Under the pieces are notes generated by a model that ran no database searches, was not told the DNA's origin, and saw nothing but the letters and a program-made list of their open reading frames with translations. From the sequence record DRR378314_1610: 53,425 bases of DNA; one strand, given 5' to 3'. The position numbers were made by a program, and so were the translations under genes. Below, piece after piece: positions 5,371 through 50,080 of this stretch (positions are counted from its first letter, which is position 1; the number at the start of each line of letters is the position of its first letter).

Positions 5371-7341
5371 ATGCGACAACTTCTGAGCTGCTTGTTGATC
5401 CTTTTCCTGGCCCAGCCTCTCTTGATATCGGCCCAGCAGGCGCCGACATTGGAGCTACCGGAAAGTGCCGATGTCCGCATTATTGTGGACATCTCCGGCT
5501 CCATGAAAACCAATGATCCGAATAATCTGCGGCGCCCCGCCGTCCGGTTGTTGGCTCGTATGCTGCCGTCGGAGGCCAGTGCAGGGGTTTGGACCTTCGG
5601 GCAGTACGTCAACATGCTGGTGCCCCATGGCAAAGTCACAGAGGACTGGCGGGGGCTAGCTATCGAGCGCTCGGATGAGATCAATTCAGTGGCCCTTCGG
5701 ACCAATCTGGGGGAGGCGATCCAGGTTGCCAGTGACGACTACCTTCTGGGTACGGACGATCTTGGAAACACCGACTTTATCCTGCTCACGGATGGCAAAG
5801 TGGATATCTCCGACAACGAGAGCGCCAATGACCGCGAGCGTGAGCGGATTCTGGAGCCGTTACTGGAGACATTGAGCAGCCGCGGCGCCACCATCCACAC
5901 GGTCGCCTTGTCCGAGGAGGCCGATCTCGAATTATTGAAGGCCCTGGCAGAAGCAACGGATGGCCGATATGCCTTGGCATCTTCAGCCGACGCATTGACC
6001 CTGGCCTTTCTTGAGGCCCTCAACACGGCTGTACCTCAGCAACAGATTCCCATTGAGGGCAACGGGTTCCAGGTGGACAGCGGCGTGGAGGAATTCACTG
6101 CGCTGATTTTTCGCGCGGGTGATGAATCCGCCGCCAACCGCACACTGGAACTGGTGAGCCCCGGCGGCACCGAAGCCGGGCCGGAGTCCGTTCTTGAGGG
6201 AATGCGTTGGGTCCGCGAAACGGAGTACGACCTGATTACCGTCACCGATCCTGAGGCGGGTGACTGGACGATCAACGGCGAGTTGGGTGAGGGCAGTCGG
6301 GTCACGGTGGTCAGCGACCTGAGGATGGTTGTGAGCCCGGTTCCACCGACATTCACAGAGGAGGAGCCGATCACTCTTCAGGTTGCCTTCTTTGAGGAAG
6401 ACCAGAAAATTGAAAACCCGGACTTCCTGGGTGTTATCGAGGTAAGTGTGGCTCTAACCTCAGAAGACGGGCGCAGTGGCACCAAAGTGTTGTCTCCGGA
6501 TCAGCCGCCGCAGGACGGCGTGTATACCGACTCTATCACACGCCTGCCCGGTGGCGGAGAGTACCAGCTCAGTATCATTGCCGACGGCCAGACCTTCTCC
6601 AGACGCTTTAGCGCTGTCACCCGATTCATTCCGCCGGAAGGGCCTCCTCAGGAAGTCCCGGCGATGGACAGTGAAGCGCAGGAGAGCTCTCCCGAGTCAG
6701 AGATGGAGACCGCTCCCGAGCCGGAGACAGAGCCACCCGTATCCGATGTCGGACCGATCGATATCAGTCAGGTTGAGGAGCCCGATCCGCTGCCTGTCGA
6801 GGAACCGCCTGCTGATAAGGAGGCGCCGGAACCGGAGGCCCCGTCCGACAATGACGAGGCGGCGGGTATGCCTTTGTGGATGATGGGCGCTGCTGGTGGT
6901 CTTGGCCTGTTGGTTGTTGCGGGGGCAGCGTTCCTGTGGCTGAAGCGGAAAAAAGCTGCGCAGGACCAGGATCCAGATGAGGACGGCGAACCACCGCTTG
7001 TTGCAGAGCCGGCACCGGAGGCGGAAACCATTGTTGAACCCGATCCGGAGCCGGATCAAAACTCGGAAGACGTGGCTGAAGAGATACCTGACGAGCCACC
7101 TGAAGTAATACCTGAACCGGAGCCGGAACCGGAACAGGTGCCGGAGCTTGATCAGGACGAAGCGCTGCCAGAGGACGATATTCCCGTTGCTGAGGAAGAG
7201 GTCGAGGACGGTGAAGACGAGTTCGGCCTCGAGGATTTTGATCTCTCGGAATTCGACGATCTGCCAGACGCCGGCGAGGAGAGTGAGTCCGGAGCCGACG
7301 ATGAACCCGATAATAATGAGGATGACGGGAAGGACCGGTAA
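5371..7341 (+). CDS. Exported VWA-domain protein with C-terminal TM anchor and acidic tail
   Basis: Signal peptide, MIDAS DISGSM plus LLTDG, beta-rich middle, Pro/Glu linker, TM LWMMGAAGGLGLLVVAGAAFLWL followed by KRKK, D/E-rich tail. Confidence 0.85.
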   Translation: MRQLLSCLLILFLAQPLLISAQQAPTLELPESADVRIIVDISGSMKTNDPNNLRRPAVRLLARMLPSEASAGVWTFGQYVNMLVPHGKVTEDWRGLAIERSDEINSVALRTNLGEAIQVASDDYLLGTDDLGNTDFILLTDGKVDISDNESANDRERERILEPLLETLSSRGATIHTVALSEEADLELLKALAEATDGRYALASSADALTLAFLEALNTAVPQQQIPIEGNGFQVDSGVEEFTALIFRAGDESAANRTLELVSPGGTEAGPESVLEGMRWVRETEYDLITVTDPEAGDWTINGELGEGSRVTVVSDLRMVVSPVPPTFTEEEPITLQVAFFEEDQKIENPDFLGVIEVSVALTSEDGRSGTKVLSPDQPPQDGVYTDSITRLPGGGEYQLSIIADGQTFSRRFSAVTRFIPPEGPPQEVPAMDSEAQESSPESEMETAPEPETEPPVSDVGPIDISQVEEPDPLPVEEPPADKEAPEPEAPSDNDEAAGMPLWMMGAAGGLGLLVVAGAAFLWLKRKKAAQDQDPDEDGEPPLVAEPAPEAETIVEPDPEPDQNSEDVAEEIPDEPPEVIPEPEPEPEQVPELDQDEALPEDDIPVAEEEVEDGEDEFGLEDFDLSEFDDLPDAGEESESGADDEPDNNEDDGKDR

Positions 7342-7450: not shown

Positions 7451-8293
7451 ATGAAGTTTACCGGTACCGAGAAATACGTAGCCACTGATGACCTGCAGAT
7501 GGCAGTCAACGCAGCCATAACGCTGCAACGCCCGCTACTGATCAAGGGTGAGCCCGGCACCGGTAAAACCCTGCTGGCGGAAGAAATGGCGTCGGCGCTC
7601 GGCATGCGCCTGATTCCATGGCACATCAAATCCACCACCAAGGCCCAACAGGGGCTTTACGAATACGACGCGGTCTCCCGTCTGCGGGACTCCCAGCTTG
7701 GTGATGAGAAGGTCAAAGACATCAGCAACTACATCGTCAAGGGCAAGCTGTGGGAAGCGTTTGAAGCCGACGAGCAGGTGGTGCTGTTGATAGATGAAAT
7801 CGACAAGGCGGATATCGAGTTTCCCAACGATCTCCTGCTGGAACTCGATCGCATGGAATTCTTCGTGTACGAAACACAACAGTCCGTGCGTGCCAAATAT
7901 CGTCCTATCATTGTGATCACCAGCAACAATGAGAAGGAACTTCCGGATGCCTTTTTGCGCCGCTGTTTCTTCCACTACATCAGCTTCCCGGACCACGATA
8001 CCATGAAGAGCATCGTGGACGTGCACTTCCCGGGCTTGCAGCAGCAGGTGGTTCGGGACGCTCTGGAAGTCTTCTTCGACGTCCGCAAGGTACCAGGGCT
8101 GAAGAAAAAGCCGTCCACCTCGGAATTGATTGATTGGCTCAAACTGCTGATGGCGGATGAGCTGTCTGCGAAAATGCTGCAGGAGAAGGACACCAGTTCT
8201 GCCTTGCCGCCGCTCTATGGCGCGCTGGTGAAGAACGAGCAGGATGTCCACCTGTTGCAGAAACTGGCCTTCATGGCCCGTCGTCGCAGCTGA
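7451..8293 (+). CDS. MoxR-family AAA+ ATPase
   Basis: Walker A GEPGTGKT, Walker B LLIDEIDK, ITSNNEKELPDAFLRRC. Confidence 0.92.
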   Translation: MKFTGTEKYVATDDLQMAVNAAITLQRPLLIKGEPGTGKTLLAEEMASALGMRLIPWHIKSTTKAQQGLYEYDAVSRLRDSQLGDEKVKDISNYIVKGKLWEAFEADEQVVLLIDEIDKADIEFPNDLLLELDRMEFFVYETQQSVRAKYRPIIVITSNNEKELPDAFLRRCFFHYISFPDHDTMKSIVDVHFPGLQQQVVRDALEVFFDVRKVPGLKKKPSTSELIDWLKLLMADELSAKMLQEKDTSSALPPLYGALVKNEQDVHLLQKLAFMARRRS

Positions 8294-8315
8294 AATTCAG
8301 CAAGAGCAGCACCCT

Positions 8316-9494
8316 ATGTTGATTGATTTCTTTCTCGAAGTCCGGCGAGCCAAGGTGCCCGCCAGTCTGCGCGAATTTCTGGATTTGCTGGAAGCCCTGC
8401 AGAACCGGCTCGCCTTTGCGAACATGGAAGAGTTCTACTATCTGGCCCGGGTATGCCTGGTCAAGGATGAGCGTCATTTCGACAAGTTCGACCGAGCGTT
8501 TCAGACTTATTTCGAGGGCATTGAAAACCTCGATGACCTGATGCAGGCGTTGATTCCGGATGACTGGCTGCGAGCAGAGTTTGAAAAGCAGTTGTCCGAG
8601 GAGGACAAGGCCAAGATCGACTCCCTTGGTGGGCTGGAAGAGCTGATCGAGACCTTCAAGAAACGCATGGAAGAGCAGAAGGAACGGCATCAGGGCGGAA
8701 ACAAATGGATTGGCACCGGTGGAACGTCGCCCTTCGGCGCCAACGGCTACAATCCGGAAGGTTTTCGCATTGGCCAGAACAAGGGCCGTCACGGCCGCGC
8801 CGTCAAAGTCTGGGAGAAACGCGAGTTCAAGGACCTGGACGACAGCGTTACCCTGGGCATCCGCAACATCAAGGTCGCCATGCGTCGGTTGCGGAAATTT
8901 GCCCGCCAGGGTGCCGCGGATCAGCTCGATATGGACGATACTATCCGTTCTACCGCGCGCAACGCCGGGTACCTGGATCTGAAAATGGTTCCCGAGCGGC
9001 ACAATGCGGTCAAAGTGCTGATCTTCTTCGACGTGGGGGGCTCCATGGACCCACACGTGCGGGTGTGCGAAGAGCTTTTCTCGGCGGCCCGGCTTGAGTT
9101 CAAGCACATGGAGTACTTTTACTTCCACAACTTCATCTACGAAAGCGTCTGGAAAAACAACATCCGCCGGATGAACGAAACGACGAGCACCTGGGATATC
9201 CTTCACAAGTACACGCCGGACTACAAAGTGATCTTTGTGGGGGACGCCACCATGGCGCCCTATGAGGTTTCACACCCCGGAGGCTCGATCGAGCATTGGA
9301 ATGAGGAAGCGGGCGCAACGTGGTTCCAGCGTATTACCGACCACTTCCGCAAGGTGGTGTGGATCAACCCATTGCCCGAGAGTTACTGGGGCTCGGGTGG
9401 GTCGCTCGGTATGACACGCCAGCTGGTGAACGACCACATGTACCCGTTGACCATTGAAGGCCTGGAATCGGCCATGAAGCAATTGAGCAAGTAA
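8316..9494 (+). CDS. VWA-domain (CoxE-like) partner of the MoxR ATPase
   Basis: WIGTGGTSPFG, MIDAS-like DVGGSM, FVGDATMAPYE; directly downstream of MoxR; start at ATG 8316. Confidence 0.88.
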   Translation: MLIDFFLEVRRAKVPASLREFLDLLEALQNRLAFANMEEFYYLARVCLVKDERHFDKFDRAFQTYFEGIENLDDLMQALIPDDWLRAEFEKQLSEEDKAKIDSLGGLEELIETFKKRMEEQKERHQGGNKWIGTGGTSPFGANGYNPEGFRIGQNKGRHGRAVKVWEKREFKDLDDSVTLGIRNIKVAMRRLRKFARQGAADQLDMDDTIRSTARNAGYLDLKMVPERHNAVKVLIFFDVGGSMDPHVRVCEELFSAARLEFKHMEYFYFHNFIYESVWKNNIRRMNETTSTWDILHKYTPDYKVIFVGDATMAPYEVSHPGGSIEHWNEEAGATWFQRITDHFRKVVWINPLPESYWGSGGSLGMTRQLVNDHMYPLTIEGLESAMKQLSK

Positions 9495-9525
9495 AAAAAA
9501 GCCGATGCGGTTGAGGGCATCGGCT
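9493..9525 (-). terminator. Intrinsic terminator oriented for minus-strand transcription
   Basis: Minus strand reads AGCCGATGC-CCTCAACC-GCATCGGCT followed by a T tract. Confidence 0.75.
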
Positions 9526-9542
9526 AAGCTCGGCATATCAAA

Positions 9543-9575
9543 CGGGGTGGCCAAAGGCTGCCCCGCGTTTTTATT
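9543..9575 (+). terminator. Possible intrinsic terminator of the MoxR/VWA operon
   Basis: CGGGGTGGCC-AAA-GGCTGCCCCG hairpin followed by CGTTTTTATT. Confidence 0.55.
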
Positions 9576-9736
9576 GGAGCAAATCCGGGGCCAGTTCAAA
9601 TTAACCCCTGCAAAACAATCGTTTAACCGACATTCCGAGTCTTTCCCGAAAACGTGACATTCCCCAACGTTTTCCTTCTGTCAAAAAAACCGACGTTTTC
9701 GGATTTCCAATTGGTGATCTGGATACCGTTCTTGCC

Positions 9737-9772
9737 TGTTACCAAGTGTTACTCTTTCCGCCAGTTTGTTAC
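9737..9772 (+). promoter_or_regulatory. Helically phased TGTTAC direct repeats upstream of the TPR/ExbBD operon
   Basis: TGTTAC at 9737, 9747 and 9767 (10 and 20 bp spacing). Confidence 0.45.
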
Positions 9773-9798
9773 AGAACATTGCAAGAGGCAGGAAGCGT

Positions 9799-10359
9799 AT
9801 GGTCGCCGGAGCGCAGCGAACAGTAACGGTTGGGCGCCAGGTCGTGGTGGCGGGGCCAGTCACCGTGGCAGTGATGGTGTTGTGTCTGCTCGGTTTGGCA
9901 CGCGGCGCCTTCGCGGAGTCGCTGGATCATGAGATAGACCGCCTGAAAGCCGATGTGGCGGACCTCAGCCAGACCTTGTACGAACTGGAGGAGAGCGTCC
10001 TCTATCCCGTCGATACGCAAGTGGCAGTTTTCCTGACACTCGAAAAAAAGGAAGGGCTGGATCTCGACTCCGTGGAGCTTTATCTGAACGGAACACCGGT
10101 CGCTTCACACCTTTATACCGATCGGGAACGTGACTCTCTGAAGCAGGGCGGCGTCCAGCGTCTGTACATTGGAAACCTGCCACACGGCTCCCATCGGTTA
10201 AAAGCCGTACTGACAGCCCGGTCGGCGAATGAGCGGTTTGTTCGCCGGGAGGCCACCCACCAGTTCCGGAAGCGGCCCGGCGAATCCCGCATACAGTTGA
10301 CTCTGGATGCCGCTGCGCCTGATTACGAGCCGGTTGTATCCTTCCGGGAATGGAAGTAG
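9799..10359 (+). CDS. Exported coiled-coil plus beta-sandwich protein, first gene of the Agl/Glt-like operon
   Basis: Signal peptide ending AFA, short coiled coil, beta-rich domain (LDSVELYLNG, GGVQRLYIGNL); no HTH visible. Confidence 0.75.
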   Translation: MVAGAQRTVTVGRQVVVAGPVTVAVMVLCLLGLARGAFAESLDHEIDRLKADVADLSQTLYELEESVLYPVDTQVAVFLTLEKKEGLDLDSVELYLNGTPVASHLYTDRERDSLKQGGVQRLYIGNLPHGSHRLKAVLTARSANERFVRREATHQFRKRPGESRIQLTLDAAAPDYEPVVSFREWK

Positions 10360-10365
10360 GGCGTA

Positions 10366-12018
10366 ATGATGGCCTTGCCCGCAAAACTTCGAAAAGTCAG
10401 CGCTCTGCTGGCCCTCTGTCTGACCATGGCGCTTACCCCGGGGGTGGCAGTCGGTGTCGGCAACGATGACCTGGCCTCTTTACGGTCGGGGCTGGCGCGG
10501 TTCGCGCTGGACGCCGGCGATCCTGCCGCAGCGCTGCGTTACACCCGGAATGCCGTTACAGAGCTCGATCGTCTGGTCCGTGCCAAAGCACTTATGGTCA
10601 CAGGCAATGGTCAGCAGGCTGAACCACTGCTGAAGGCACTGCTCGAAGGTCAATATTACCGTGGGCGGGCGGCGTTGTTACTGGCGGACCTGGATGGGGA
10701 CACCGATGACAGTGGAGTCCGTGAGTACCTTGAAACCGCCGCAAGGCTGGGCAATGGCAATGCCCGGCAAAAGGCGCTCTATCGGTTGGCCGAAATTGAG
10801 CGGCAAGCAGGGCACACTGACCGCGCCGGGAAGGTATTGGCTACCATGGAGCCCGGATATTGGGCGGCGTTGGGCTACATGAATATGGCGGCTGACTATG
10901 GCAAGCAGGATAGGAGCCCCTCCCGAGCCCTGGTTGCACTTCGTGTGGCATTGGCGATGTCTGAGAAGGATGGCGATAGCCAGCGCAGTCAGGAGCTCAG
11001 AAGCCGCCTGCTGGTGCGGACTGGATACCTTGCGTACGAGCACGAGGACTACGAAAAGGCCATCGGGTTTCTGGAAAAGATACCGCTGGAAAGTTACAGC
11101 ACGCCCCATGGCCTGTATCTTCACGGGCTTGCGCTCTCTGCCAGTGGAAACCAGCGGGCGGCAATGCAGTCCTGGCACCGGGCCAAGAAATACCCACTGG
11201 CCTATCCCGGAGTGGCCGATGCCTGGCTAGGTACAGGCAGGGGATACGACCTGGCAGGCTACCTGGGGCAGGCCGGCGAGGCCTACCTTGCGGCCAACGC
11301 CTCCTATGAAAGCGAACGGGTGACGCTCCGCAAGTTGGCAGACCAGATTCGTCAAAAAGGCGCCTACCAGGCGTTGGTGCTGGATGCGCGTAATTCCGAA
11401 GCACAGTGGTTCCTGGCGGACAATCGTACGCTTACCCAGCCCCGTACCGCTTATCTTCTTCGCTTCATGGAAGGAAGTAGCGCCCAAGCTGCCGTCAAAC
11501 GTGTGGCTGAACTGAGAGACATGAAGCAAACGCTGGATCAGCGTGAAGACAGTCTTGTGGTTTTCCGGGGCGCCATCAGCGAGCGTTCGGGGCCCGTTAC
11601 CAACGACATCGCTGCTCACGCCTTCGGGGGCGACATTGAAGCGTTGACGCAACGAATCGCCACCCTGAAAGACCGTACCGAGTCATCCGCCCAACGAGAT
11701 GAACTCAAAGGCGCGGCCCGGACACTCGCCGATGTGAAAGCGTCGATCGCCAGGCTTGAGAGCCGATTGGACGAAAAGGACCGCACGCTAGAGCTGTTGA
11801 TGGCTCGAACCGATCAGGCATTGGAGCGCTTGCGGGCGATTCGTAGCACGGCCGACGCCCTGCTTGGCAAGGCAGAGTCGGTTCTGGATGAGAGAGCGCT
11901 GGCCTATGTCGAAGAACAGGACCATCGCATGGCGTTTGCGCTGGATCGGACAGAGCAGCAGGTTGCCCATCTCTACGAGTACCTGGCCCTGGAAAACCTT
12001 GAGCGGGGGCAGCCATGA
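10366..12018 (+). CDS. Exported TPR/coiled-coil protein (GltC-like)
   Basis: Signal peptide, TPR-like helical repeats, long C-terminal coiled coil. Confidence 0.75.
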   Translation: MMALPAKLRKVSALLALCLTMALTPGVAVGVGNDDLASLRSGLARFALDAGDPAAALRYTRNAVTELDRLVRAKALMVTGNGQQAEPLLKALLEGQYYRGRAALLLADLDGDTDDSGVREYLETAARLGNGNARQKALYRLAEIERQAGHTDRAGKVLATMEPGYWAALGYMNMAADYGKQDRSPSRALVALRVALAMSEKDGDSQRSQELRSRLLVRTGYLAYEHEDYEKAIGFLEKIPLESYSTPHGLYLHGLALSASGNQRAAMQSWHRAKKYPLAYPGVADAWLGTGRGYDLAGYLGQAGEAYLAANASYESERVTLRKLADQIRQKGAYQALVLDARNSEAQWFLADNRTLTQPRTAYLLRFMEGSSAQAAVKRVAELRDMKQTLDQREDSLVVFRGAISERSGPVTNDIAAHAFGGDIEALTQRIATLKDRTESSAQRDELKGAARTLADVKASIARLESRLDEKDRTLELLMARTDQALERLRAIRSTADALLGKAESVLDERALAYVEEQDHRMAFALDRTEQQVAHLYEYLALENLERGQP

Positions 12019-14810
12019 AACCGGTCGTGTTAATTTCCCTGACGGTCATGCTGACCTGCGTAGCGGCGACCGTCCATGCCCAGGAATCCTTCCGGGTAGA
12101 GCTCGGTCGCGACGGCGAAACCATTGCCGACATGCGCCCGGTTTTCCTGGAGTTTGAATCCCGCCCGATGCCGGCCATCTCGCCCATGGAAGTCGCCCGC
12201 CGATACCAGCGTCTTTTTGAACATTCTGATGAGCCCGAGGTGCGCATCGACGCGCTTAACCGGCTGTCCAATATCCAGAATGTGACGGACGAAGACGTCA
12301 GCTTCAGTGAGGAGCGCGAGCAGCAGGTCTACCGACAGGCGCTGGAAAGCTACGAATCCATTCTCGACAGGGGCGCCTATCAGGGCCGGCTGGACGAGCT
12401 GCTCTACCAGATGGCCAAGGCCCATGCCTATACCGGGCAGGCGGAGCAGTCCATCGACCGGCTGCGCCAACTGGTTGGCCTCTATCCTTCCTCCTCTCTG
12501 GTTCCGGAGGCTCGTTTCCGAATTGCGGAGTCTGCCTTTTCGGCGGGCGACTACGCGATGGCTGAATCGGAATATAGCCGCGTAATCTCCGGCGATGGCG
12601 CAGACAGTCTGAAAACCAAAGCCCGTTATATGCAGGGTTGGAGTCAGTTCAAGCAAGGCCCCGCAGCGTGGCGAAGGGCGGGCGAGACATTTCTGGCCGT
12701 ATTGGATGGGTTCGGTGCGCAAACCGGTGGGTTCCGCCGTATCCCCGCCAACGATGCCGAGCTGATTGACGACACCTTCCGGATTGTCGCCTTGATGGCG
12801 GCTGAAGACAGGGGTATTGAGTCCCTGGCCAGCTGGCTGGGCCAGGTGGGCGGCAAGGACTACGGATACCTGTTATACGATCGGCTGGCGGACTACTACG
12901 CCAGTCAGCGGCGTTATGATGACAGCGTGGCGGTTAACGAAGCCTTTGTCAGCGCTTACGCCTCGCATAACGTCGTTCCAGCCTTCTTGGCTCAGAACGT
13001 AGACGTCTGGCGCATGGCCGGGCGAACCTCCCGCGCGAGGGAGGCCAGAGCCGGGTATGTCAGGGCATTTTCCAGCGATGCTCGTTACCAGCCGCTCGCC
13101 GGCGCTGATCGGGAGCGCTGGCGGGATTTCAGTCGCTCGCTGGCGGATTATCATTATGACCAGGCCGAAAACGCCCAGGCGGGGGCACGGGCAGAGTCTT
13201 TTCTCCTGGCTGCGGGCTTTTACAGTCAACTGGCTCACCGAAGTCACCAGAGTGGAGAGATTCTTCGCCTTGCCGGCGATGCGTTCCTGCAGGCCGGTCA
13301 CCACAGTGACGCCTTCGAGCACTATCAGCAGGCAGCTTATGACACCGAAGGGTATGCGGCAGCAGCGGATGCCGCGTGGGCGGCGATACTGATTCAGCGT
13401 GATGCGCTGGACGGTCAGAATTCGCTGCCCGCGACCCTGGACGACCTCGCATCCGCAACTGACCGATTCGCCTCTGGGTTTCCTTCAGACGAGCGACAGC
13501 CGGGGCTGGCCGCTGATATCTCTAACCGAATGCTCGCGCGTAACCGTCATGCCGAGGCCCTCCGGTTTGCTGAGGTTGCCATAACTCATCCGTCTGCCAG
13601 CACAGCCGAGCGGTACAGCGCATGGGTGGCTACCGGAGAGGCACACGTGGCGATGGAATCGTTCGGGCCCGCTGAGAATGCGTGGCGTAAGTCACTGACG
13701 CTGATCACCGGCGGGGCATTGCAGGGGAAACAGGCCCAGGACGTTGGCGGCCTGCAACGGCAGTTGGCCAGCAGCATCTATTACCAGGGTGAGAAAGCCG
13801 CGAACGAGGGCCGTATCGACACTGCCGTGGCGCATTTTCAGCGTGTGGAGTCGGCCCTTCCGGGCTCGGACATTGCGATCAAGGGGCGTTACGACGCAGC
13901 GAATACGCTGCTAACGGCCGAGCGCTGGCAGGCTGCTGTTAATGAACTGACCCGGTTTCGTCAGGATTACCCGCGACATGATCTCACCAAGTCCTTGAGT
14001 GAAAAACTGGTGTTTGCCTATCAGTCATCGGGCCAGCCGGTGCGGGCGGCGGATGAAATCATGGCGGCCTCGGGGGAGGGGGTGCCGTCCTGGGAACAGC
14101 AGTTGCGGGCAGCAGAGCTATACCACCAGGCGGAGGCCCACGAGCGCCGTAATCGCATCTATGTCGAATGGTTGAATCGCGACTCTGCCGGTGCCAACGA
14201 CTCCGACAGTCATATCCGCAACCAGACCCTGCGCCACCGTCTTGTGCTCGACGATGTGGAGCCGCGCCGATATAGAAGCGAGCTGGTAAAGCAGGAACTC
14301 GACAGCCAATGGCACTCGGAAGACACGCTCGCCTGGGCTGGGCGGGCTGCCATTGTGCTTGCTGAGGAGGAGTCGAAGCGGTTTGCCGGTGTTGCATTGC
14401 AGGTTCCCCTGGCCGAATCCCTGACGCGTAAACAGTCGGCCCTTGCGGCTGCGCGGGAACGTCTTTCGCAGGCCGAGAAGTTGGCCGGTGAGGGAGTGCT
14501 CTCGGAAATTCTGTTTCGTCGTGCGGAGTTGTACCGGGTGATGGCACAGGATCTCATGGCGTCTGAAGCGCCCGAGGAACTGAGCGACCTGGAAGCAGCC
14601 CAGTACCGGATGTTGCTTGAAGAGGAAGCCTTTCCGTTCGAGGAAAAAGCGATTGATTTGCACGCACGGAATCATCAGCGTCTTGCGGAAGGCCGGTTTG
14701 ACGAGTGGATAGAGCGCAGTCTGCAGGTCTTAGCCGACCTGTTTCCTGGCCGCTACGACCGGGAGGTACGTTGGATGACCTGGAACGAGGAGACAAACGA
14801 TGGCGCCTGA
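12015..14810 (+). CDS. Large periplasmic TPR protein (GltD/AgmU-like)
   Basis: Signal peptide ending VHA, many TPRs (LLYQMAKAH, EARFRIAE, KARYMQGWSQFK), C-terminal APEELSDLEAAQYRMLLEEEAFPFEEKAI. Confidence 0.8.
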   Translation: MKPVVLISLTVMLTCVAATVHAQESFRVELGRDGETIADMRPVFLEFESRPMPAISPMEVARRYQRLFEHSDEPEVRIDALNRLSNIQNVTDEDVSFSEEREQQVYRQALESYESILDRGAYQGRLDELLYQMAKAHAYTGQAEQSIDRLRQLVGLYPSSSLVPEARFRIAESAFSAGDYAMAESEYSRVISGDGADSLKTKARYMQGWSQFKQGPAAWRRAGETFLAVLDGFGAQTGGFRRIPANDAELIDDTFRIVALMAAEDRGIESLASWLGQVGGKDYGYLLYDRLADYYASQRRYDDSVAVNEAFVSAYASHNVVPAFLAQNVDVWRMAGRTSRAREARAGYVRAFSSDARYQPLAGADRERWRDFSRSLADYHYDQAENAQAGARAESFLLAAGFYSQLAHRSHQSGEILRLAGDAFLQAGHHSDAFEHYQQAAYDTEGYAAAADAAWAAILIQRDALDGQNSLPATLDDLASATDRFASGFPSDERQPGLAADISNRMLARNRHAEALRFAEVAITHPSASTAERYSAWVATGEAHVAMESFGPAENAWRKSLTLITGGALQGKQAQDVGGLQRQLASSIYYQGEKAANEGRIDTAVAHFQRVESALPGSDIAIKGRYDAANTLLTAERWQAAVNELTRFRQDYPRHDLTKSLSEKLVFAYQSSGQPVRAADEIMAASGEGVPSWEQQLRAAELYHQAEAHERRNRIYVEWLNRDSAGANDSDSHIRNQTLRHRLVLDDVEPRRYRSELVKQELDSQWHSEDTLAWAGRAAIVLAEEESKRFAGVALQVPLAESLTRKQSALAAARERLSQAEKLAGEGVLSEILFRRAELYRVMAQDLMASEAPEELSDLEAAQYRMLLEEEAFPFEEKAIDLHARNHQRLAEGRFDEWIERSLQVLADLFPGRYDREVRWMTWNEETNDGA

Positions 14811-15273
14811 TACTACGGTACGCGCAGTTCTGTTTACGAGTTGCCTTGCGCTGTTGATAGTGGGGTGCGCCAGCCAACCCAAACCGGAGCCAACGGTTGT
14901 CAACACGGCCGAGGCTCGCGAACTGGTGCGTCAGGCCTGGGAGGCTCACCAGCAGGGGCGCACGAACGATGCTCTCGAACGATATCGCCAGGCCTTCAAG
15001 CTCGACCCGGGCAATGCACTCACGGCCAACAACCTTGCCTTGATGCTGCGTGAGCAGGGGCGCTTTGACGAGGCAGTGAGGGTGCTTGAGCAGGGGCTCA
15101 GGCATTCCCCGAATACCGCCGAATTGCATTACAACCTCGCCGTTATCTCCGAGTTGTATCTTCTCGATCTGGACGGCGCACTGTCCCATTACCGCCGCTA
15201 CCGCGAATTGGCTGGTACCGAAGAGAGGCAGGTTGCCGGTTGGATTGCAGACCTGGAACGGAGGCTGGACTAA
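14800..15273 (+). CDS. TPR lipoprotein (GltE-like)
   Basis: Lipobox IVG-C (Cys23), about three TPRs (ANNLALMLREQG, LHYNLAVISELY). Confidence 0.8.
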   Translation: MAPDTTVRAVLFTSCLALLIVGCASQPKPEPTVVNTAEARELVRQAWEAHQQGRTNDALERYRQAFKLDPGNALTANNLALMLREQGRFDEAVRVLEQGLRHSPNTAELHYNLAVISELYLLDLDGALSHYRRYRELAGTEERQVAGWIADLERRLD

Positions 15274-15624
15274 ATGTGTGTTGTTCGAGGATTGGCGGCT
15301 TCCGGGCTGCTATTGATGCTGGTTACGTTGCCGGTCTCTGCGGAGAAGGGGCCTGAATCGCCGGCTGCTGCCGCGACAGACGCTCAGGAAAGCACCGTTG
15401 CCCTGGGTGTGGAAGGCATCACCCGGCACACCGGGGACGACGACCCCGGCGTGCTCTATATCCTGCCCTGGCAACCACCCACGTTACCCCGCCGGTCACG
15501 CGCCGAACTGGGCGCCGGCAGTGATGAATTGCTCACACCCAAGGACCCGTTGACCCTTGAACGTCATCGGATGTTTCGCGAAACCCTGAATCCGTCCATG
15601 GATTCCACCCTTTCCCTGCAGTAG
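15274..15624 (+). CDS. Small exported protein (GltF/CglF-like)
   Basis: Signal peptide; TGDDDPGVLYILPWQ motif; sits between the TPR lipoprotein and the motor genes. Confidence 0.6.
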   Translation: MCVVRGLAASGLLLMLVTLPVSAEKGPESPAAAATDAQESTVALGVEGITRHTGDDDPGVLYILPWQPPTLPRRSRAELGAGSDELLTPKDPLTLERHRMFRETLNPSMDSTLSLQ

Positions 15625-15634
15625 AACCGGGAGT

Positions 15635-16285
15635 ATGAATATGCTGGAAACTGTTGTTCGTTTTTTTCAGGAAGGTGGTCCCTTCATGTACCCAATTGCC
15701 ATCGTACTGGCCGTTGGGCTGGCGATTACCATTGAGCGCTTCCTGTATCTTGCCTCGGTGCGTCGACGGAATCGGCTGGCGTTCGAGAAGGGCATACTGC
15801 CGTTGCTGAGGAAGCGGGACTATCAGCGTGCGATGAAGGCTGCGACGAGCTCGGACAGCGCCATCGCGTCTATCATGAGTGCCGGCATCGGTAGACTGTT
15901 GAATAATCACCCCCGGGAAGACGTCGAGTACGCCATGGAAGAGGGGTTGATGGAAGTCCTGCCACGCCTTGAAAAACGCACCCAATACCTGGCGACACTG
16001 GCCAACATTGCCACGCTCCTTGGGCTGTTGGGCACGATCATTGGCCTGATTGCCGCGTTCACGGCGGTGGCGGCCGCTGATCCTTCCCAAAAAGCCTCGC
16101 TGTTGTCGGAAAGCATCTCGGTTGCCATGAACACCACGGCGTTCGGGTTGATGTCAGCTATTCCCCTGCTGATGTTCCACGCATTACTGCAGACCCGTAC
16201 CAATGAAATTGTTGACAGTTTCGAGATGGCCGGTGTGAAGCTGTTGAATATTATTTCCGAGCAGCCCGCCCCCCGATCCGCCTGA
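15635..16285 (+). CDS. MotA/TolQ/ExbB proton-channel protein (AglR-like)
   Basis: GGPFMYPI TM1; LATLANIATLLGLLGTIIGLI and ISVAMNTTAFGL TM2/TM3. Confidence 0.92.
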   Translation: MNMLETVVRFFQEGGPFMYPIAIVLAVGLAITIERFLYLASVRRRNRLAFEKGILPLLRKRDYQRAMKAATSSDSAIASIMSAGIGRLLNNHPREDVEYAMEEGLMEVLPRLEKRTQYLATLANIATLLGLLGTIIGLIAAFTAVAAADPSQKASLLSESISVAMNTTAFGLMSAIPLLMFHALLQTRTNEIVDSFEMAGVKLLNIISEQPAPRSA

Positions 16286-16301
16286 ACCAGGGTTTTGCCG
16301 A

Positions 16302-16817
16302 ATGAGACGAAAGCATCGCAGGCTTGTGAGCAATCCGGAACTGGATATTACGCCGTTCCTGAACCTGATGATTGTGCTTGTCCCGGTATTGCTGCTGGGC
16401 ATGGTCTTCAGCCAGATTCGAATGATTGAGCTGAACTTTCCCGGAATGAACGCGGGCGAGGCGCCTGAGGCGGACGAACTGCGCCTGGTCGTGGCGCTGA
16501 TGCCTCAGGGGCTGGAGGTGCTGGACAGCCAACGCGGGGTGATACGAACGCTACCACTGATGGAGGGCGAACAGGATTTTAATGGCCTGAGGGAAACCCT
16601 CAAACGGATCAAGAAGCGTGTGCCAGAGAAGACCGATATCATCCTTGAGGTAAGCCCGGACATCGATTATCAGACGCTGGTGACCGCAATGGACACGGTT
16701 CGATCTTACCCGGCGGTCGTTGCAGCCAGTGTGGTGGAGGGTGAGCTCTTTCCGGACGTAGCCCTGGCGGACGCACCTGAAAACCGGACGCTATCCGGCG
16801 TAGGGGAGGGCGTATGA
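16302..16817 (+). CDS. ExbD/TolR-family protein with Asn at the conserved Asp position
   Basis: ELDITPFLNLMIVLVPVLL single TM; C-terminal PDIDYQTLVTAMD. Confidence 0.88.
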   Translation: MRRKHRRLVSNPELDITPFLNLMIVLVPVLLLGMVFSQIRMIELNFPGMNAGEAPEADELRLVVALMPQGLEVLDSQRGVIRTLPLMEGEQDFNGLRETLKRIKKRVPEKTDIILEVSPDIDYQTLVTAMDTVRSYPAVVAASVVEGELFPDVALADAPENRTLSGVGEGV

Positions 16818-17308
16818 AAAGCTCGCGCCGAGCTCGTCGGATTCAGCGACATTACGGCCGTATGCACCGGCCTGGCGGCTTGAACCTGGTTTCCCTGATG
16901 GACATCTTCACCATTCTCGTGTTCTTCCTGATGGTGAATTCATCCGATGTGAAGGTTATGCAGAACACGGCCGATGTTCCGTTGCCGCAATCGACGGCGG
17001 AAAAGGCAGCGACTGAAACTCTGATCGTCCAGGTGGCTGGCCGGTCCATTCTTGTCCAGGGCCGGGAAGTTGCGCGACTGGATGGCATTGAAACCGGTGA
17101 CCGTACGATTGGGGGATTGGCGGAGGAGCTCGCCTGGCTACGAAACCGGCGGGGCGCCGTACCAGATCAGGGCCATGAGGTAACCATCATGGCAGGGCGC
17201 GCCACCGATTACCGGCTGCTTAGAAAGGTCATGCAGACCTGTATTGACGAGGATTTCCGGCAGGTCAGGCTGGCTGTTGAGTCGGCAAAGGAGGTGAACA
17301 ATGGCTGA
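16814..17308 (+). CDS. ExbD/TolR-family protein retaining the TM Asp
   Basis: LNLVSLMDIFTILVFFL TM; C-terminal TDYRLLRKVMQTC; ATGA overlap with the previous gene. Confidence 0.88.
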   Translation: MKSSRRARRIQRHYGRMHRPGGLNLVSLMDIFTILVFFLMVNSSDVKVMQNTADVPLPQSTAEKAATETLIVQVAGRSILVQGREVARLDGIETGDRTIGGLAEELAWLRNRRGAVPDQGHEVTIMAGRATDYRLLRKVMQTCIDEDFRQVRLAVESAKEVNNG

Positions 17309-18287
17309 GCGCCAGAATCCTTCTACCAGGAAGCTTTCTTCCGGACTGCCATGGGGGGCGGAAAAGGGCGAGAACCGCCGCTTTTTGCTGGCGTTGCTGG
17401 TGATGCTGGCGGTCTTTCTGCCTCCCGCACTGCTTATACCGGCCCTTCAGCTCCCAGAGCCCGATCGTCACGAGGTGGAGAAAATACCCCCTCAATTGGC
17501 AAGATTGGTGGAGAAGCGCGAGGCTCCCAAGCCGGCGCCAGTACCGGAGGTAGAGCCAGAACCCGAGCCTGTACCTGATGAGCCAGAGCCTGATATTGAG
17601 CAACCCGAGGCGCCAGCTCCGGAGGTGGAGCAGGCGGCACCCACCCCTGAGCCCGCGCGCCCGACGCCCGCACCCTCGCAAACGGTGGAGCAGGCCAGGG
17701 AAACCGCTTCCAGGTCTGGCCTGATGGCGATGCAGGACCAGCTTGCCAGCATGCGGGCACAGGAATCTGAAACCGTGGACACTCTGTCCGCCAACGTTGA
17801 CGCTGATGGTGCGAGCAGCGGTGGAGATCCGTTTGGTGTCGAGGTCGACCCTGACACGGCTCTGGCCGGGAGCGGCGGCGTCACCCGTGAAGCAGCGCCT
17901 GAAAATGAGGTGGCGGTGGCTGGCCATCAGGTACGGGATGTCGACGTGGCGAAGGAAGCAGCGCCGGAACCCGCACCAGAGCCGTCTGGTGGGGCAGGCC
18001 AGCGGGGGATGAGTAACATCCGTCAGGTCTTCGATGCCCAGAAAACGTCACTCTATTCCCTCTATCGCCGTGAACTTCGGCAGGATCCAACGCTGGAAGG
18101 GAAGGTTATGCTGGAGTTGGTGATCGAGCCCGACGGCTCCGTGTCGAGGTGCGAGGTGGTCAGTTCCGAGCTCAGCAACGAGAGCCTGGAGCAACGAATT
18201 GCAATGCGAGTGCGCCTGTTCAATTTCGGCGAGGACGACGTGGAACCCAGGACGGTGCGGTTCCCTATCGATTTCCTGCCGGGGTAA
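17301..18287 (+). CDS. TonB-like energy transducer with AgmX/PglI-type C-terminal domain (GltG-like)
   Basis: N-terminal TM, Pro/Glu-rich linker, C-terminal YRRELRQDPTLEGKVMLELVIEPDGSV...FPIDFLP. Confidence 0.85.
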   Translation: MAERQNPSTRKLSSGLPWGAEKGENRRFLLALLVMLAVFLPPALLIPALQLPEPDRHEVEKIPPQLARLVEKREAPKPAPVPEVEPEPEPVPDEPEPDIEQPEAPAPEVEQAAPTPEPARPTPAPSQTVEQARETASRSGLMAMQDQLASMRAQESETVDTLSANVDADGASSGGDPFGVEVDPDTALAGSGGVTREAAPENEVAVAGHQVRDVDVAKEAAPEPAPEPSGGAGQRGMSNIRQVFDAQKTSLYSLYRRELRQDPTLEGKVMLELVIEPDGSVSRCEVVSSELSNESLEQRIAMRVRLFNFGEDDVEPRTVRFPIDFLPG

Positions 18288-26510: not shown

Positions 26511-27302
26511 ATGAGAGACATTTTATTCCGGCACCCGACAATCGGCGCCCTTATTTTTGTTTGCCTGTTTTCGGGCAATGTGGCCGCGCAGACGGTGCAG
26601 CCAGCCAATCCAGACATGGCAGAGCGGAAACTCGATGCGCCACCCAGCGAAATCGATCCCTACGAAGACTGGAACCGCAAAGTTTATCGTTTCAATGAAA
26701 CCATTGATAACTGGTTTCTGCGCCCCGTTGCGCAGGGCTATCGAGCGGTTGTACCCGGTTTCGCCGATCGTGCGGTGACGAATTTCTTCAACAACCTGAC
26801 GGAAATTCGGAACCTCGCCAATAGTCTCTTCCAGTTAAAGGGAGAATCTGCGGTTGTGGCTGCTGGCCGCTTCACCTACAACACCGTTTTTGGTCTGGGT
26901 GGATTGATTGATGTCGCCACTATGTTCGAGCTGCCGGAGAGACCCGAGGATTTTGGTCAGACGCTTGGCTACTGGGGAATGAATTCAGGTCCCTACCTGA
27001 TGCTTCCTCTCATGGGGCCCTCGAATCCCAGGGACTTTGGCGGTTTTCTGTCTGATAACTTTTTGTTGCCGTCTGCCTGGGACTATGCCGAAACCCCAGA
27101 GGTGTATTACGCCAGGGCGCTGCAAATCGTGGACAAGCGGGCGGACTTGATCCCCGCTGAGAGTTTTATGTCGGGTGATGGATACACGTTCGTGAGAAAC
27201 GCCTATCTCCAACGGCGAGCCTTCCTGATCAATGATGGCAGGACGGTAGAAGATCCATTCGCCAGTGGTGACGATGAGGATTTGATGCTGGAGGATTTCT
27301 GA
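26511..27302 (+). CDS. mlaA: MlaA/VacJ outer-membrane lipid asymmetry protein
   Basis: DPYEDWNR, NFFNNL, GLGGLIDVA, EDFGQTLGYWG, GPYLMLPLMGP, YTFVRNAYLQRR. Confidence 0.9.
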   Translation: MRDILFRHPTIGALIFVCLFSGNVAAQTVQPANPDMAERKLDAPPSEIDPYEDWNRKVYRFNETIDNWFLRPVAQGYRAVVPGFADRAVTNFFNNLTEIRNLANSLFQLKGESAVVAAGRFTYNTVFGLGGLIDVATMFELPERPEDFGQTLGYWGMNSGPYLMLPLMGPSNPRDFGGFLSDNFLLPSAWDYAETPEVYYARALQIVDKRADLIPAESFMSGDGYTFVRNAYLQRRAFLINDGRTVEDPFASGDDEDLMLEDF

Positions 27303-27338
27303 CGCATCGGATCGGCTGGAGCAACGGAGGTTTAGCTG

Positions 27339-28826
27339 ATGGTTGATGACCGTATCCGGAAATTTCGCAAGATGCTGGCGGAAGCACCCAATTATGAGGT
27401 GTGGAAGGCGGCGGCGCTTGAGCTGGACTTCCTTGAAGGCAATGTGGAGTGGAAGGAGGAATTTGGGTCGGGTCTTTACCATTACGAGCTCATCTACGAC
27501 CGACTCAGCAATCTTCGCTCCTACCGCCAGCAGAATGATTTCGAGCGTCTTAAACGGGCGCTGAGGGAAGGGCTGCACCACGACTTGGGGAACATGGGCA
27601 ATACCGCCCTGTACACCCGTTCACGGGTCGGCACCAAGCATCTGATCGAGGAATACATTACTCAGGTGTGCGAATCGTTGGACTTCCTGTGCGACACCAC
27701 GGTGCCGGGATTTCCAGTGGCTGAAAAACTGCAGTTCTTCCGCGATACCCTGACCAGCTACGGCCGTCCAGCTTTGCTCCTCAGTGGCGGTGCCACGCTG
27801 GGCATGTTCCATTTCGGCGTTATTAAGGCCCTTTGGGAGAAAGGGCTGCTGCCACAGGTCATTGCGGGCTCCAGCATTGGCGCCATCATCGCCGGGATAC
27901 TGGGGGTCCACAGCGATGCTGAAATACCGGACATGCTGGTGCCTGAAAACCATGACATGAGAGCCTGGAAATGGCGCGGGCTGTTCAGTGCCGTCCGGGG
28001 TGACGGCCTGATGGACCAGGAACAGTTGAAAGCCTGCCTGCGCGCCAATATTGGCGAATACACCTTCGAGGAAGCGTTCCAGAAGACCGGACGGTCCATC
28101 AACGTGAGTGTCTCTCCGGTTCAGGCCCACCAGAAGGCGCGATTGTTGTGTGGCTATACGTCGCCCTATCTGTTGGTCTGGAGTGCGGTGCTGGCCAGCG
28201 CGGCAGTGCCGGGTATCTTCCCACCGGTGCCGCTGATGAAAAAAGACATTCACGGAAACGTGTTGCCCTACATGTCGCGTCTGAAATTCGTAGACGGTTC
28301 GGTGGTCAGTGACTTGCCCATTGAACGGCTGATGCACCTTTACGACGTGAACTTCACCATTGTCAGCCAGACCAACCCCCATGTGGTGCCTTTTTTGAAC
28401 CGTCGTGGGCGGGACGAAAAGATCAACATCGCCAACCTGCCGATGCACTTGCTGAAATCGGAAATCCAGTTCCATGGCCAGGGCCTGTTCGACTACCTGC
28501 GAAAGCGTGTGCAGCCCGAGATGCTGCGGCAGATGTCGGGGCAGATGTACACCATCATGGGGCAGCGTTACTCCGGGGACGTCACCATCTCGCCGAGGTA
28601 TCGTCTTCGCGACTATCGGCGCATGCTGTCGAACCCCGACCCGGCCTGGGTCCGGGAGATGATTCTGCAAGGCGAGCGTGCGACCTGGCCCAAGATCTCA
28701 ATGATTCGCTCTCATGCACGGATCTCCAAAACCCTGGAGCGATGCATTCGCCGGTTAAAATCCGAGCAGCGCCGCTCCACGGCCGAACTGAGACTGGTAA
28801 GCAGTGCGGATTCCGGCACTTCATGA
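27339..28826 (+). CDS. DUF3336 + patatin lipase (TAG-lipase-like)
   Basis: N-terminal YEVWKAAALELD region, LSGGATLG, GSSIG nucleophile, VDGS, IVSQTNPH. Confidence 0.85.
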   Translation: MVDDRIRKFRKMLAEAPNYEVWKAAALELDFLEGNVEWKEEFGSGLYHYELIYDRLSNLRSYRQQNDFERLKRALREGLHHDLGNMGNTALYTRSRVGTKHLIEEYITQVCESLDFLCDTTVPGFPVAEKLQFFRDTLTSYGRPALLLSGGATLGMFHFGVIKALWEKGLLPQVIAGSSIGAIIAGILGVHSDAEIPDMLVPENHDMRAWKWRGLFSAVRGDGLMDQEQLKACLRANIGEYTFEEAFQKTGRSINVSVSPVQAHQKARLLCGYTSPYLLVWSAVLASAAVPGIFPPVPLMKKDIHGNVLPYMSRLKFVDGSVVSDLPIERLMHLYDVNFTIVSQTNPHVVPFLNRRGRDEKINIANLPMHLLKSEIQFHGQGLFDYLRKRVQPEMLRQMSGQMYTIMGQRYSGDVTISPRYRLRDYRRMLSNPDPAWVREMILQGERATWPKISMIRSHARISKTLERCIRRLKSEQRRSTAELRLVSSADSGTS

Positions 28827-28923
28827 GATGACAGCCCCGGGAGCCGGGCGGTATGATACCGCGATAGCCGGGGAGCCCTTAGCGGCTCCCGCAAGCTCCG
28901 CCTGAGCACCTGACTGGACACGC

Positions 28924-30648: not shown

Positions 30649-30649
30649 T

Positions 30650-31411
30650 ATGTCCTATATCCTCGATGCCCTCCGGAAATCTGAAACCGAAAGGCGACAG
30701 GGTCGGATTCCGGACCTTGGCCAACAGGTGCAACTGATCCACAAGCCCAGAAAGAAGTCGATTCCGGTCCTGGTGTGGGTGGCTGCCGGCCTGGTCCTCA
30801 ATGCGGCAGTGTTGGCCTGGGTGTTATGGCCACAGGGTGGCCAGGCTCCATCCCCTGACCAGGCTGTGTCTTCAGACGCAATTGCTGTGCCTGCACCCAC
30901 CGTTGAGCCGGCCGTCGTTGAGGCTGAACCGGAAGCGTCCCGCCGGGCAACGGCGCCGGAACCTGTTCCATCGCCGCCGACCGGCGATACGCTTCAGGGC
31001 GCTATTGAGATTCCAACACCGGGCGCGAATACCGACTCCTCACGTAACGCAGTGGCCGAGACCGGTGATGAGGATGAGCGGGAGCGTCCGACCGTGATCG
31101 TTCCCACGCCGCGTACACCGAGTGCGATCAACCCAAGTGATACGGACGGCGCCACGACTCGGTCGGCGCCGCACCTTGTAGAACTTCCACTTTCCTTCCA
31201 GAAAAGGGTGCCCGACCTGATCTTCAACAGTCACATTTACGCCTCCGAACCGTCTGCACGACGGGTCATGATCAACGACAATTACCTGCGGCCAGGGGAG
31301 TCGTTTTCCGGAATTACCGTTGAGCGGATCACCGAGGAAGGCGTGGAACTGAGCATGGATGGTCGTCGCTTCCGGGTGGGTGTGGTACGCAACTGGGTGA
31401 GCCCCGAATAA
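30650..31411 (+). CDS. exeB: ExeB/GspB secretin-assembly factor
   Basis: MSYILDALRKSE start, TM, Pro-rich linker, FNSHIYASEPSARRVMIN. Confidence 0.88.
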   Translation: MSYILDALRKSETERRQGRIPDLGQQVQLIHKPRKKSIPVLVWVAAGLVLNAAVLAWVLWPQGGQAPSPDQAVSSDAIAVPAPTVEPAVVEAEPEASRRATAPEPVPSPPTGDTLQGAIEIPTPGANTDSSRNAVAETGDEDERERPTVIVPTPRTPSAINPSDTDGATTRSAPHLVELPLSFQKRVPDLIFNSHIYASEPSARRVMINDNYLRPGESFSGITVERITEEGVELSMDGRRFRVGVVRNWVSPE

Positions 31412-50075: not shown

Positions 50076-50080
50076 TAGGG

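Follow-up and report, generated by a model that had tools for sequence, protein, structure and literature searches.

The closest described relative of the locus treated here, a set of nine genes (g1 to g9) in a 53,425-nucleotide (nt) stretch from sequence record DRR378314_1610 which is called the window in the following, is the Agl/Glt core complex, the proposed ancestor of the two Myxococcus machines for gliding and for spore-coat assembly. Luciano et al. defined this core complex in 2011 as the Group B genes gltC, gltD, gltE, gltG, aglR, aglQ, aglS and one extra gene; in the portions of the paper available, the extra gene is given as having no Myxococcus homologue and the function of the core locus is called unknown (PMC3169522). 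Two core copies are listed there for Marinobacter aquaeolei VT8, Maqu_1602-1595 and Maqu_1814-1807 (Table S3 and Fig. S1), the first in the order Maqu_1602/1601/1600/[1599]/1598/1597/1596/1595 with protein lengths of 550, 939, 162, -, 221, -, - and 321 amino acids (aa). Maqu_1595-1602 are given as homologues of MXAN_4867, 6860-6862, 4869, 4870, and 2541, and proteins of M. algicola DG893 appear in the trees of Fig. S4 (PMC3169522). In 2013 the core was put forward as a candidate for "a basal transport machinery" and its own function was still called unknown (PMC3858216), as it was in a preprint of 2020, and a literature search of limited coverage found no later functional work on the gammaproteobacterial core or on the Maqu locus tags. 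The nine-gene operon of the window is very probably the Marinobacter "copy A" orthologue of this core complex. It is an operon of an already published kind, described before for the genus Marinobacter, and no new kind of system.

The proteins encoded by g2 to g9 have lengths of 550, 931, 157, 116, 216, 171, 164, and 328 aa and agree in order and size with Maqu_1602-1595. A locus of M. nauticus (L027) encodes proteins of 550, 939, 161, 123, 216, 176, 162, and 321 aa, which share 47-88% identity with the respective proteins of the window. Gene order and lengths together with the match to the M. nauticus locus thus argue that the window cluster is the orthologue of the first listed VT8 copy. The order gltC-gltD-gltE-extra gene-aglR-aglQ/S-aglQ/S-gltG within one locus was found in the window and in all 20 clusters fetched from other Gammaproteobacteria, which had been picked for carrying g1 and the AgmX/PglI domain on one contig and were retrieved with about 1 kb of flank each. 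As in the published core, one TolQ/ExbB-like gene is accompanied by two distinct TolR/ExbD-like genes according to Pfam (g6-g8). The genomes of M. algicola, M. nauticus, M. salarius, and a Marinobacter metagenome-assembled genome (MAG) were used as stand-ins for the genome of the window. A second, diverged copy (copy B) with 29-32% identity on g3 was present in all four Marinobacter genomes searched.

The TonB-like protein g9 gave the clearest profile result. It passes the NCBIfam model NF033768 "AgmX/PglI C-terminal domain" with 62.7 bits at a cut-off of 40, and it stays below the TonB models (tonB_Cterm 23.1 versus 27.1 bits, Pfam TonB_C 24.4 versus 24.6 bits). The equivalog models of GltG and GltJ match g9 through the C-terminal domain only. 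In three of three Marinobacter genomes the AgmX/PglI domain occurred exactly twice, once per cluster, and it was above the cut-off in none of 14 control genomes. A search with the g9 head for "longer" proteins, aimed at GltG and GltJ, yielded no match at E <= 0.001. The first-pass annotation, made from the letters of the window, had read the genes as an Agl/Glt-type core complex and not as an ordinary TonB or Tol-Pal system, a reading now supported by the pass of NF033768, the failed Tol/Exb cut-offs given below, and the match to the Maqu genes. The best profiles do not place the genes with ordinary TonB2/TtpC or Tol-Pal systems, as the respective equivalog cut-offs were failed and the AgmX/PglI model was passed. 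The annotation was also right in stating that related core clusters are known outside the myxobacteria, hence its reading is correct but not new.

The nine genes, listed in Table 1, are open reading frames of the plus strand with junctions ranging from an 11-nt overlap to a 16-nt gap, so that the co-oriented and tightly spaced or overlapping arrangement described before was borne out by the list of reading frames. They are predicted to form one operon because of these junctions (-11 to +16 nt), the terminator-like hairpin upstream, the gene order kept in the 20 gammaproteobacterial clusters, and the co-occurrence of g1 with the AgmX/PglI domain. The start of g1 was set to an ATG which an AGGAAG Shine-Dalgarno sequence precedes by 6 nt; the frame is also open from a TTG at 9766.

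Table 1. Genes of the nine-gene operon and features upstream of it (positions in the 53,425-nt window).
Feature	Position	Strand	Description
g1	9799-10359	+	186 aa; no Pfam family at E <= 0.01; N-terminal signal-peptide-like region
g2	10366-12018	+	550 aa; GltC-like; exported helical-repeat protein, C-terminal coiled coil
g3	12015-14810	+	931 aa; GltD-like periplasmic tetratricopeptide repeat (TPR) scaffold; signal-peptide-like N-terminus
g4	14800-15273	+	157 aa; GltE-like TPR lipoprotein; lipobox LIVGC, Cys23
g5 (X)	15274-15624	+	116 aa; small exported protein; strand-like motif PGVLYILPWQPP and C-terminal helix-like motif
g6	15635-16285	+	216 aa; AglR-like ExbB/TolQ-family channel subunit; MotA_ExbB 103.6 bits
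g7	16302-16817	+	171 aa; ExbD/TolR-like plug subunit; ExbD 51.2 bits; Asn21 at the membrane-Asp position
g8	16814-17308	+	164 aa; ExbD/TolR-like plug subunit; ExbD 50.7 bits; membrane Asp kept (D30)
g9	17301-18287	+	328 aa; GltG-like TonB/TolA-type transducer; N-terminal membrane helix, Pro/Glu-rich linker, AgmX/PglI-type C-terminal domain
Terminator-like hairpin	9543-9565	+	10-pair stem with 8 GC pairs, T-rich tail; stem conserved in 9 Marinobacter sequences
Conserved non-coding block	9680-9772	+	three TGTTAC direct repeats at 9737, 9747, and 9767; candidate operator/promoter region

When species-representative genomes were scanned with g3, 155 relatives were confirmed, and 79 distinct loci among them were retained. 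All of these are from Marinobacter save one MAG labelled "Pseudomonadota bacterium", and their g3 proteins share 47-81% identity with that of the window, the nearest being those of M. algicola DG893, M. salarius, and a Marinobacter MAG (80-81%). The synteny survey proposed with the first-pass annotation thus found the block syntenic in 79 Marinobacter loci and in the same order in 20 other gammaproteobacterial clusters, from which it follows that the arrangement is not due to chance.

The main rival to the core-complex assignment is a Tol-Pal-like paralogue, where the motor and a TolA-like g9 would tether or remodel the outer membrane via TPR proteins of the YbgF/CpoB and BamD types and would serve envelope integrity or constriction rather than cargo transport. 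TolQ and TolR are indeed the best-scoring models for the motor genes g6-g8, g3 matches the TPR-type models BamD/YfiO and YbgF, and the motor model of Myxococcus has been described as very similar to TolQ5R2-TolA (PMC11761067). All these matches are, however, far under the cut-offs of the NCBIfam equivalog models. This holds for g6 (TolQ 64.5 bits at a cut-off of 221, ExbB 39.1 at 206.2), for g7 and g8 (TolR 24-29 bits at 127.3, ExbD equivalog 19 at 152.95), and for g3 (BamD/YfiO 59.2 bits at 81.4, YbgF 48.1 at 90.1). M. algicola has genes for a true TolQ (283.5 bits) and a true TolR (151.7 bits), one after the other, away from the cluster, so that a complete pair of these is present elsewhere in the genome of a relative, and the head of g9 is of the AgmX/PglI type. 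The claim that the window contains no TonB-dependent receptor, tolB or pal also stood, as none of the Plug/TonB-dependent receptor, TolB, and Pal families was detected among its 32 other large open reading frames at E <= 1e-8, with smaller reading frames and weaker matches outside the scan. Taken together a Tol-Pal-like paralogue is unlikely.

Still less probable, and only slightly better placed than the weakest reading, is an ordinary extra TonB-ExbB-ExbD system of the TonB2/TtpC-like kind with accessory TPR proteins, which would energise receptors encoded elsewhere. M. algicola encodes nine proteins of the MotA/ExbB family, namely the true TolQ, four of flagellar-stator types, two other ExbB-like ones, and the two cluster copies. 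Several energisers thus exist in Marinobacter, and g6-g9 have Pfam matches to ExbB and ExbD and near-threshold ones to TonB_C. Against this, the ExbB, ExbD, and TonB cut-offs are not reached whereas that of the AgmX/PglI model is, no receptor was among the 32 reading frames scanned, and in each of the 20 fetched clusters the motor lies together with genes for GltD-, GltE-, and GltC-like proteins. A subgroup of Marinobacter which keeps g1-g5 and g9 in a motor-less cluster likewise fits a simple energiser poorly. A complete surface-motility machine like the Agl-Glt gliding system of Myxococcus, with which the core parts are shared, is the least probable reading of all, since g9, with 328 aa and a short stretch before the membrane helix, is without the extended cytoplasmic portion of GltG (total model lengths of GltG and GltJ: 650 and 671 positions), M. 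algicola yielded no CglB match above the cut-off of the model (best E 0.41), and the operon encodes none of the Group A parts (CglB adhesin, GltA/B/H barrels, GltI and GltJ platform), the genome-wide search having covered CglB only.

Some points weigh against the assignment to the Agl/Glt core complex itself. That g2 and g3 are homologous to GltC and GltD is taken from the published Table S3 and Fig. S4 and not from a direct comparison here. Both proteins match no Glt-named NCBIfam model even at E <= 10, with the presence of GltD and GltC models in NCBIfam being uncertain. Toward the GltE model g4 scores 26.4 bits at a cut-off of 225, which is below its score for the Tgl model and speaks for a generic TPR likeness. 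In a maximum-likelihood tree 25 cluster-linked ExbB-like proteins group apart from TolQ, the two other ExbB-like proteins, and the four stators of M. algicola with a support of 89/81, and copies A and B of Marinobacter are sisters (99/96). The clade of the cluster-linked proteins is not strongly supported, as the bootstrap is unsettled and the outgroup branches are long, and is suggestive only. Finally the operon encodes no outer-membrane barrel, so that its cargo or its partner in the outer membrane would have to be encoded elsewhere.

The membrane aspartate of TolR, ExbD, and MotB is the proton-carrying residue. In an alignment with true TolR this column is occupied by Asn21 in g7 and by Asp30 in g8, and the same pattern is seen in copy B. 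Among 24 orthologues the first ExbD paralogue has asparagine in 22 and aspartate in two, and the second has aspartate in all 24. Judged from these alignments g7 and g8 are not equivalent and the Asn/Asp asymmetry is conserved. In the two deviating loci (L138 and L139 from genomes G389 and G180) both ExbD-like paralogues carry the membrane aspartate, contrary to the other 22. In Myxococcus the mutation D28N of aglQ abolishes proton conductance, motility, and sporulation (PMC3858216). The ExbD paralogue without the aspartate is not mentioned in the core-complex texts consulted and may be regarded as a modest and partly new detail.

The remaining proteins would form the periplasmic scaffold. From the two large proteins which had been called TPR proteins in the first-pass annotation, g3 kept this description due to its matches to TPR families, while it did not stand at sequence level for g2, where a weak YbgF-type match (E 9e-4) is the sole sign of TPRs. 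No Pfam family matched g2 at E <= 0.01, and its N-terminus is signal-like. An AlphaFold model of an orthologue in which g1 and g2 are fused consists of helical repeats and a long coiled coil; it is read here for its domain composition only, with no docking inferred from it. The length of 550 aa and the position of g2 are those of Maqu_1602, which is listed as homologue of MXAN_2541 (gltC) (PMC3169522). Likewise g3 is the orthologue of Maqu_1601 (939 aa), listed as homologue of MXAN_4870 (PMC3169522), and g4, which matches Pfam TPR families, has the position of Maqu_1600.

The lipobox of g4 is found in the window and in the three Marinobacter copy-A orthologues shown. Over 25 sequences a lipobox was counted in at least eight g4-like and at least ten g3-like proteins, numbers which are floors as automatically assigned starts in distant loci are often too far downstream. 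The GltD-like proteins with a lipobox come from L127-L137 and other distant clusters, and the feature is absent from g3 of the window and of the three Marinobacter copy-A orthologues shown. In M. salarius R9SW1 (L007, G001:C1:3138031-3140830) the orthologue of g3 is split into three pieces and contains two TGA codons in frame, which reflects either a broken gene or sequencing errors.

For the small protein g5 no Pfam family was found at E <= 0.01. It has a signal-like N-terminus and the motif PGVLYILPW, and a small reading frame with a signal peptide is located between the GltE-like and the ExbB-like gene in all 20 fetched clusters. Most of these share the consensus GNxELPKxLYIVPWK followed by DRxVFxRxxxYY, and two prolines and a tryptophan are invariant in all 25 rows of the family alignment. 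Look-ups of g5 and g2 in the ESM Atlas led to unnamed or generic TPR clusters of Pseudomonadota only. By the gaps in the gene numbers of Fig. S1 g5 has the position of the additional gene of the published core (PMC3169522). In Myxococcus the locus tags give the order gltD-gltE-gltF-gltG (PMC3169522), and g5 thus occupies the place of gltF. GltF has been modelled as mostly disordered, its C-terminal helix lying in GltC and one strand pairing with the head of GltG (PMC11761067). By analogy g5 probably bridges in a GltF-like manner. When residues 225-328 of g9 (the head) and residues 40-116 of g5 were submitted to complex prediction, the score was 0.02 versus a mark of 0.34; the prediction was run without alignments and the fold of the partner is uncertain, so that it speaks neither for nor against binding.

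The first gene of the operon, g1, is not listed in the published core of seven genes plus one extra gene, as far as the available portions of the paper go (PMC3169522). Copy B carries a paralogue of g1 at the same position (39% identity, E 2e-35). In a sample of 400 gammaproteobacterial genomes, not counting one that gave no score, the g1 profile was found in 76 and the AgmX/PglI domain above its cut-off in 74, with 72 genomes having both. From 94 g1 matches 58 lie 6.5-9.9 kb from an AgmX/PglI domain on the same contig, and most others are on separate contigs of draft assemblies. In one genome (G401) both g1 matches share the contig with the domain match, yet are more than 500 kb apart from it. 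In addition a single reading frame covers g1 and g2 in 12 of the 76 Marinobacter loci that could be assessed, with three loci not assessable (fusions in L026, L030, L032, L034, L035, L038, L042, L056, L069, L073, L074, and L079, for example L069:8166-9989), and in the fusions the g1 domain takes the place of the first 110-130 residues of g2. Judging from this pattern of occurrence g1 belongs to the unit as a ninth conserved member which is widespread in Gammaproteobacteria.

An AlphaFold model of g1 (predicted local distance difference test 85.9) shows a long N-terminal helix and an eight-stranded beta-sandwich. Foldseek found no match for it in the PDB at E <= 0.001, and by VIA-align the best Z score was 9.1 at a background of 7-8, the matches being the extracellular domain of PepT2, transthyretin-like, and fimbrial beta-sandwiches. 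The modelled fold is therefore described as a generic beta-sandwich only, and no more specific relative is claimed. In public records the g1 family carries the label "AraC family transcriptional regulator". This name looks wrong for g1 because of the signal peptide, the beta-sandwich fold, and a search which gave no match to a DNA-binding domain.

A more far-reaching suggestion, which is offered as tentative, is that the core would be a nine-protein machine with g1 as an obligate partner of the GltC-like protein and g5 as the ancestral counterpart of GltF, bridging the TonB-like head and the GltC-like protein via its LYI(V/L)PW strand and its C-terminal helix. If this were true, GltF would be no myxobacterial invention and the force path of gliding would already be laid out in the core.

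The motor genes g6-g8 are missing from copy A in 10 of 74 assessable Marinobacter loci (L060, L061, L066, L068, L069, L070, L072, L075, L076, and L077, for example L069:13314-14710), where g5 abuts g9 and g1-g5 as well as g9 are intact. In all four motor-less genomes searched the best match to g6 had 64-66% identity, a value like that of copy B, whereas the matches ranked next had 33-34%. A motor-less copy A, if it is working, must borrow a motor, and that of the sister copy B is the obvious candidate. Provided that the tentative nine-protein scheme holds, these loci would show that the sharing of one motor between two Glt modules arose independently of Myxococcus.

Upstream of g1 the hairpin marks the 5' limit of the operon, following a gene pair for a MoxR-like ATPase and a VWA-like protein. 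The block between hairpin and g1 has long invariant runs across nine Marinobacter species, although protein identity among these species is only about 50%. TGTTAC occurs 13 times in the 53-kb window. Three of these copies fall into the block, spaced 10 and 20 nt apart before the g1 start, and could be a binding site for a factor of the response-regulator type. These repeats were not found upstream of copy B in M. algicola. A scan of 9400-9900 with Rfam yielded no family at threshold, and a search upstream of g1 revealed no sigma-70-like promoter. A reading of TGGATACCGTTCTTGC as a sigma-54-like promoter was dropped as the spacing is one base too long.

The gene pair upstream of the hairpin (7451-9494) consists of a gene for a MoxR-like AAA ATPase and one for a 416-aa protein with no Pfam match at 1e-8. 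Its proteins are 87-100% identical across the genus, and the pair always precedes the operon in Marinobacter. Downstream a gene for a MaoC-type dehydratase is convergent with the operon and is followed by one for an acyl-CoA ligase. The MaoC, FadD, MoxR, and VWA neighbours are kept in Marinobacter and were absent from the flanks of about 1 kb retrieved with the 20 clusters of other genomes. An uptake of hydrophobic substrates, which had been considered in view of the adjacent lipid genes, was thus not supported, and the lipid-gene neighbourhood is Marinobacter synteny. Further away the window contains, at 26511-31411 and 48266-51289, genes for an MlaA lipoprotein, two patatin-like phospholipases, an AAA_22 protein beside a protein with a type II secretion system protein B domain, and a DUF4892 protein.

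A working of the machine can be proposed from the homology of its motor to Tol/Exb and from the Agl-Glt model of Myxococcus. Five g6 subunits would form a proton channel in the inner membrane, plugged by a heterodimer of g7 and g8 in which the proton-carrying aspartate would be contributed by g8 only. Proton flow would drive a conformational cycling of g9, which is presumed to be anchored beside the channel, to span the periplasm with its Pro/Glu-rich linker, and to dock with its AgmX/PglI-type head on a scaffold of g3, g4, and g2-g1. The small and mostly unstructured g5 would bridge parts of this scaffold as modelled for GltF in Myxococcus. In that organism AglR was found to bind GltG in a two-hybrid assay (PMC3169522), and an AlphaFold study predicted five AglR subunits with an AglQ-AglS heterodimer as the plug and GltF as a bridge between GltC and the GltG head (PMC11761067). 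By analogy to Agl-Nfs and Agl-Glt the output could be movement, positioning, or release of a cargo associated with the outer membrane or the surface, either polymer or protein, and the transport, positioning, or release of such a component is considered most likely.

Signs of the cluster are found in about one fifth of the sampled gammaproteobacterial species genomes (g1 in 76 and the AgmX/PglI domain in 74 of 400), so that a phenotype found in a Marinobacter strain amenable to culture would be relevant to numerous bacteria of sea and soil as well as to the evolution of gliding. The ninth gene, the candidate GltF counterpart, the plug subunit without aspartate, and the natural motor-less variants provide additional handles. 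The added details are modest and partly new: membership of g1, the g1-g2 fusion, g5 at the gltF position, the asparagine paralogue, and the motor-less subgroup were not found in the core-complex texts consulted.

Compared with known systems, the operon agrees with the core complex of Luciano et al. (Maqu_1595-1602) in genus, gene order, near-identical lengths, the AgmX/PglI head of the TonB-like protein, the extra small gene between the gltE-like and the aglR-like gene, and the presence of a second copy, and nothing essential differs. The one addition is g1, which is present in the window, in both copies, and in 76 of 400 genomes but is not listed in the available portions of the paper (PMC3169522). 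A cluster of Fibrobacter succinogenes, Fisuc_1892-1897 (FSU_2397-2403), is a relative of the core complex by its listing in Fig. S1 of Luciano et al. (PMC3169522) and not by a sequence comparison here, and differs by belonging to another phylum and by its OmpA-family neighbours. Envelope proteomes were found to contain its TPR, ExbD, and TonB-family proteins, the latter two only with cellulose (PMC4619616), and this link to growth on insoluble substrates is taken as a lead only. With Tol-Pal and ExbB-ExbD-TonB the operon shares the motor superfamily, a membrane-anchored transducer with a Pro-rich linker and a small C-terminal head, and TPR accessories of the YbgF/BamD kind, but every Tol/Exb equivalog cut-off is failed and the plug is predicted to be heteromeric with one subunit lacking the aspartate. 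To the Agl-Glt and Agl-Nfs machines of Myxococcus the likeness extends to one channel with two different plug proteins, the GltG-type head, and periplasmic proteins putatively of the GltD, GltE, and GltC types. Unlike Agl-Glt, the operon is without the GltA/B/H barrels, GltK, the CglB adhesin, and the cytoplasmic platform (GltI, GltJ, AglZ), all genes are in one operon, and g1 and g5 are without a reported Myxococcus homologue; GltG has been described with two cytoplasmic FHA domains (PMC11761067). As AglRQS in Myxococcus serves both Glt and Nfs (PMC3858216), so may one motor serve two Glt-like modules in a subgroup of Marinobacter.

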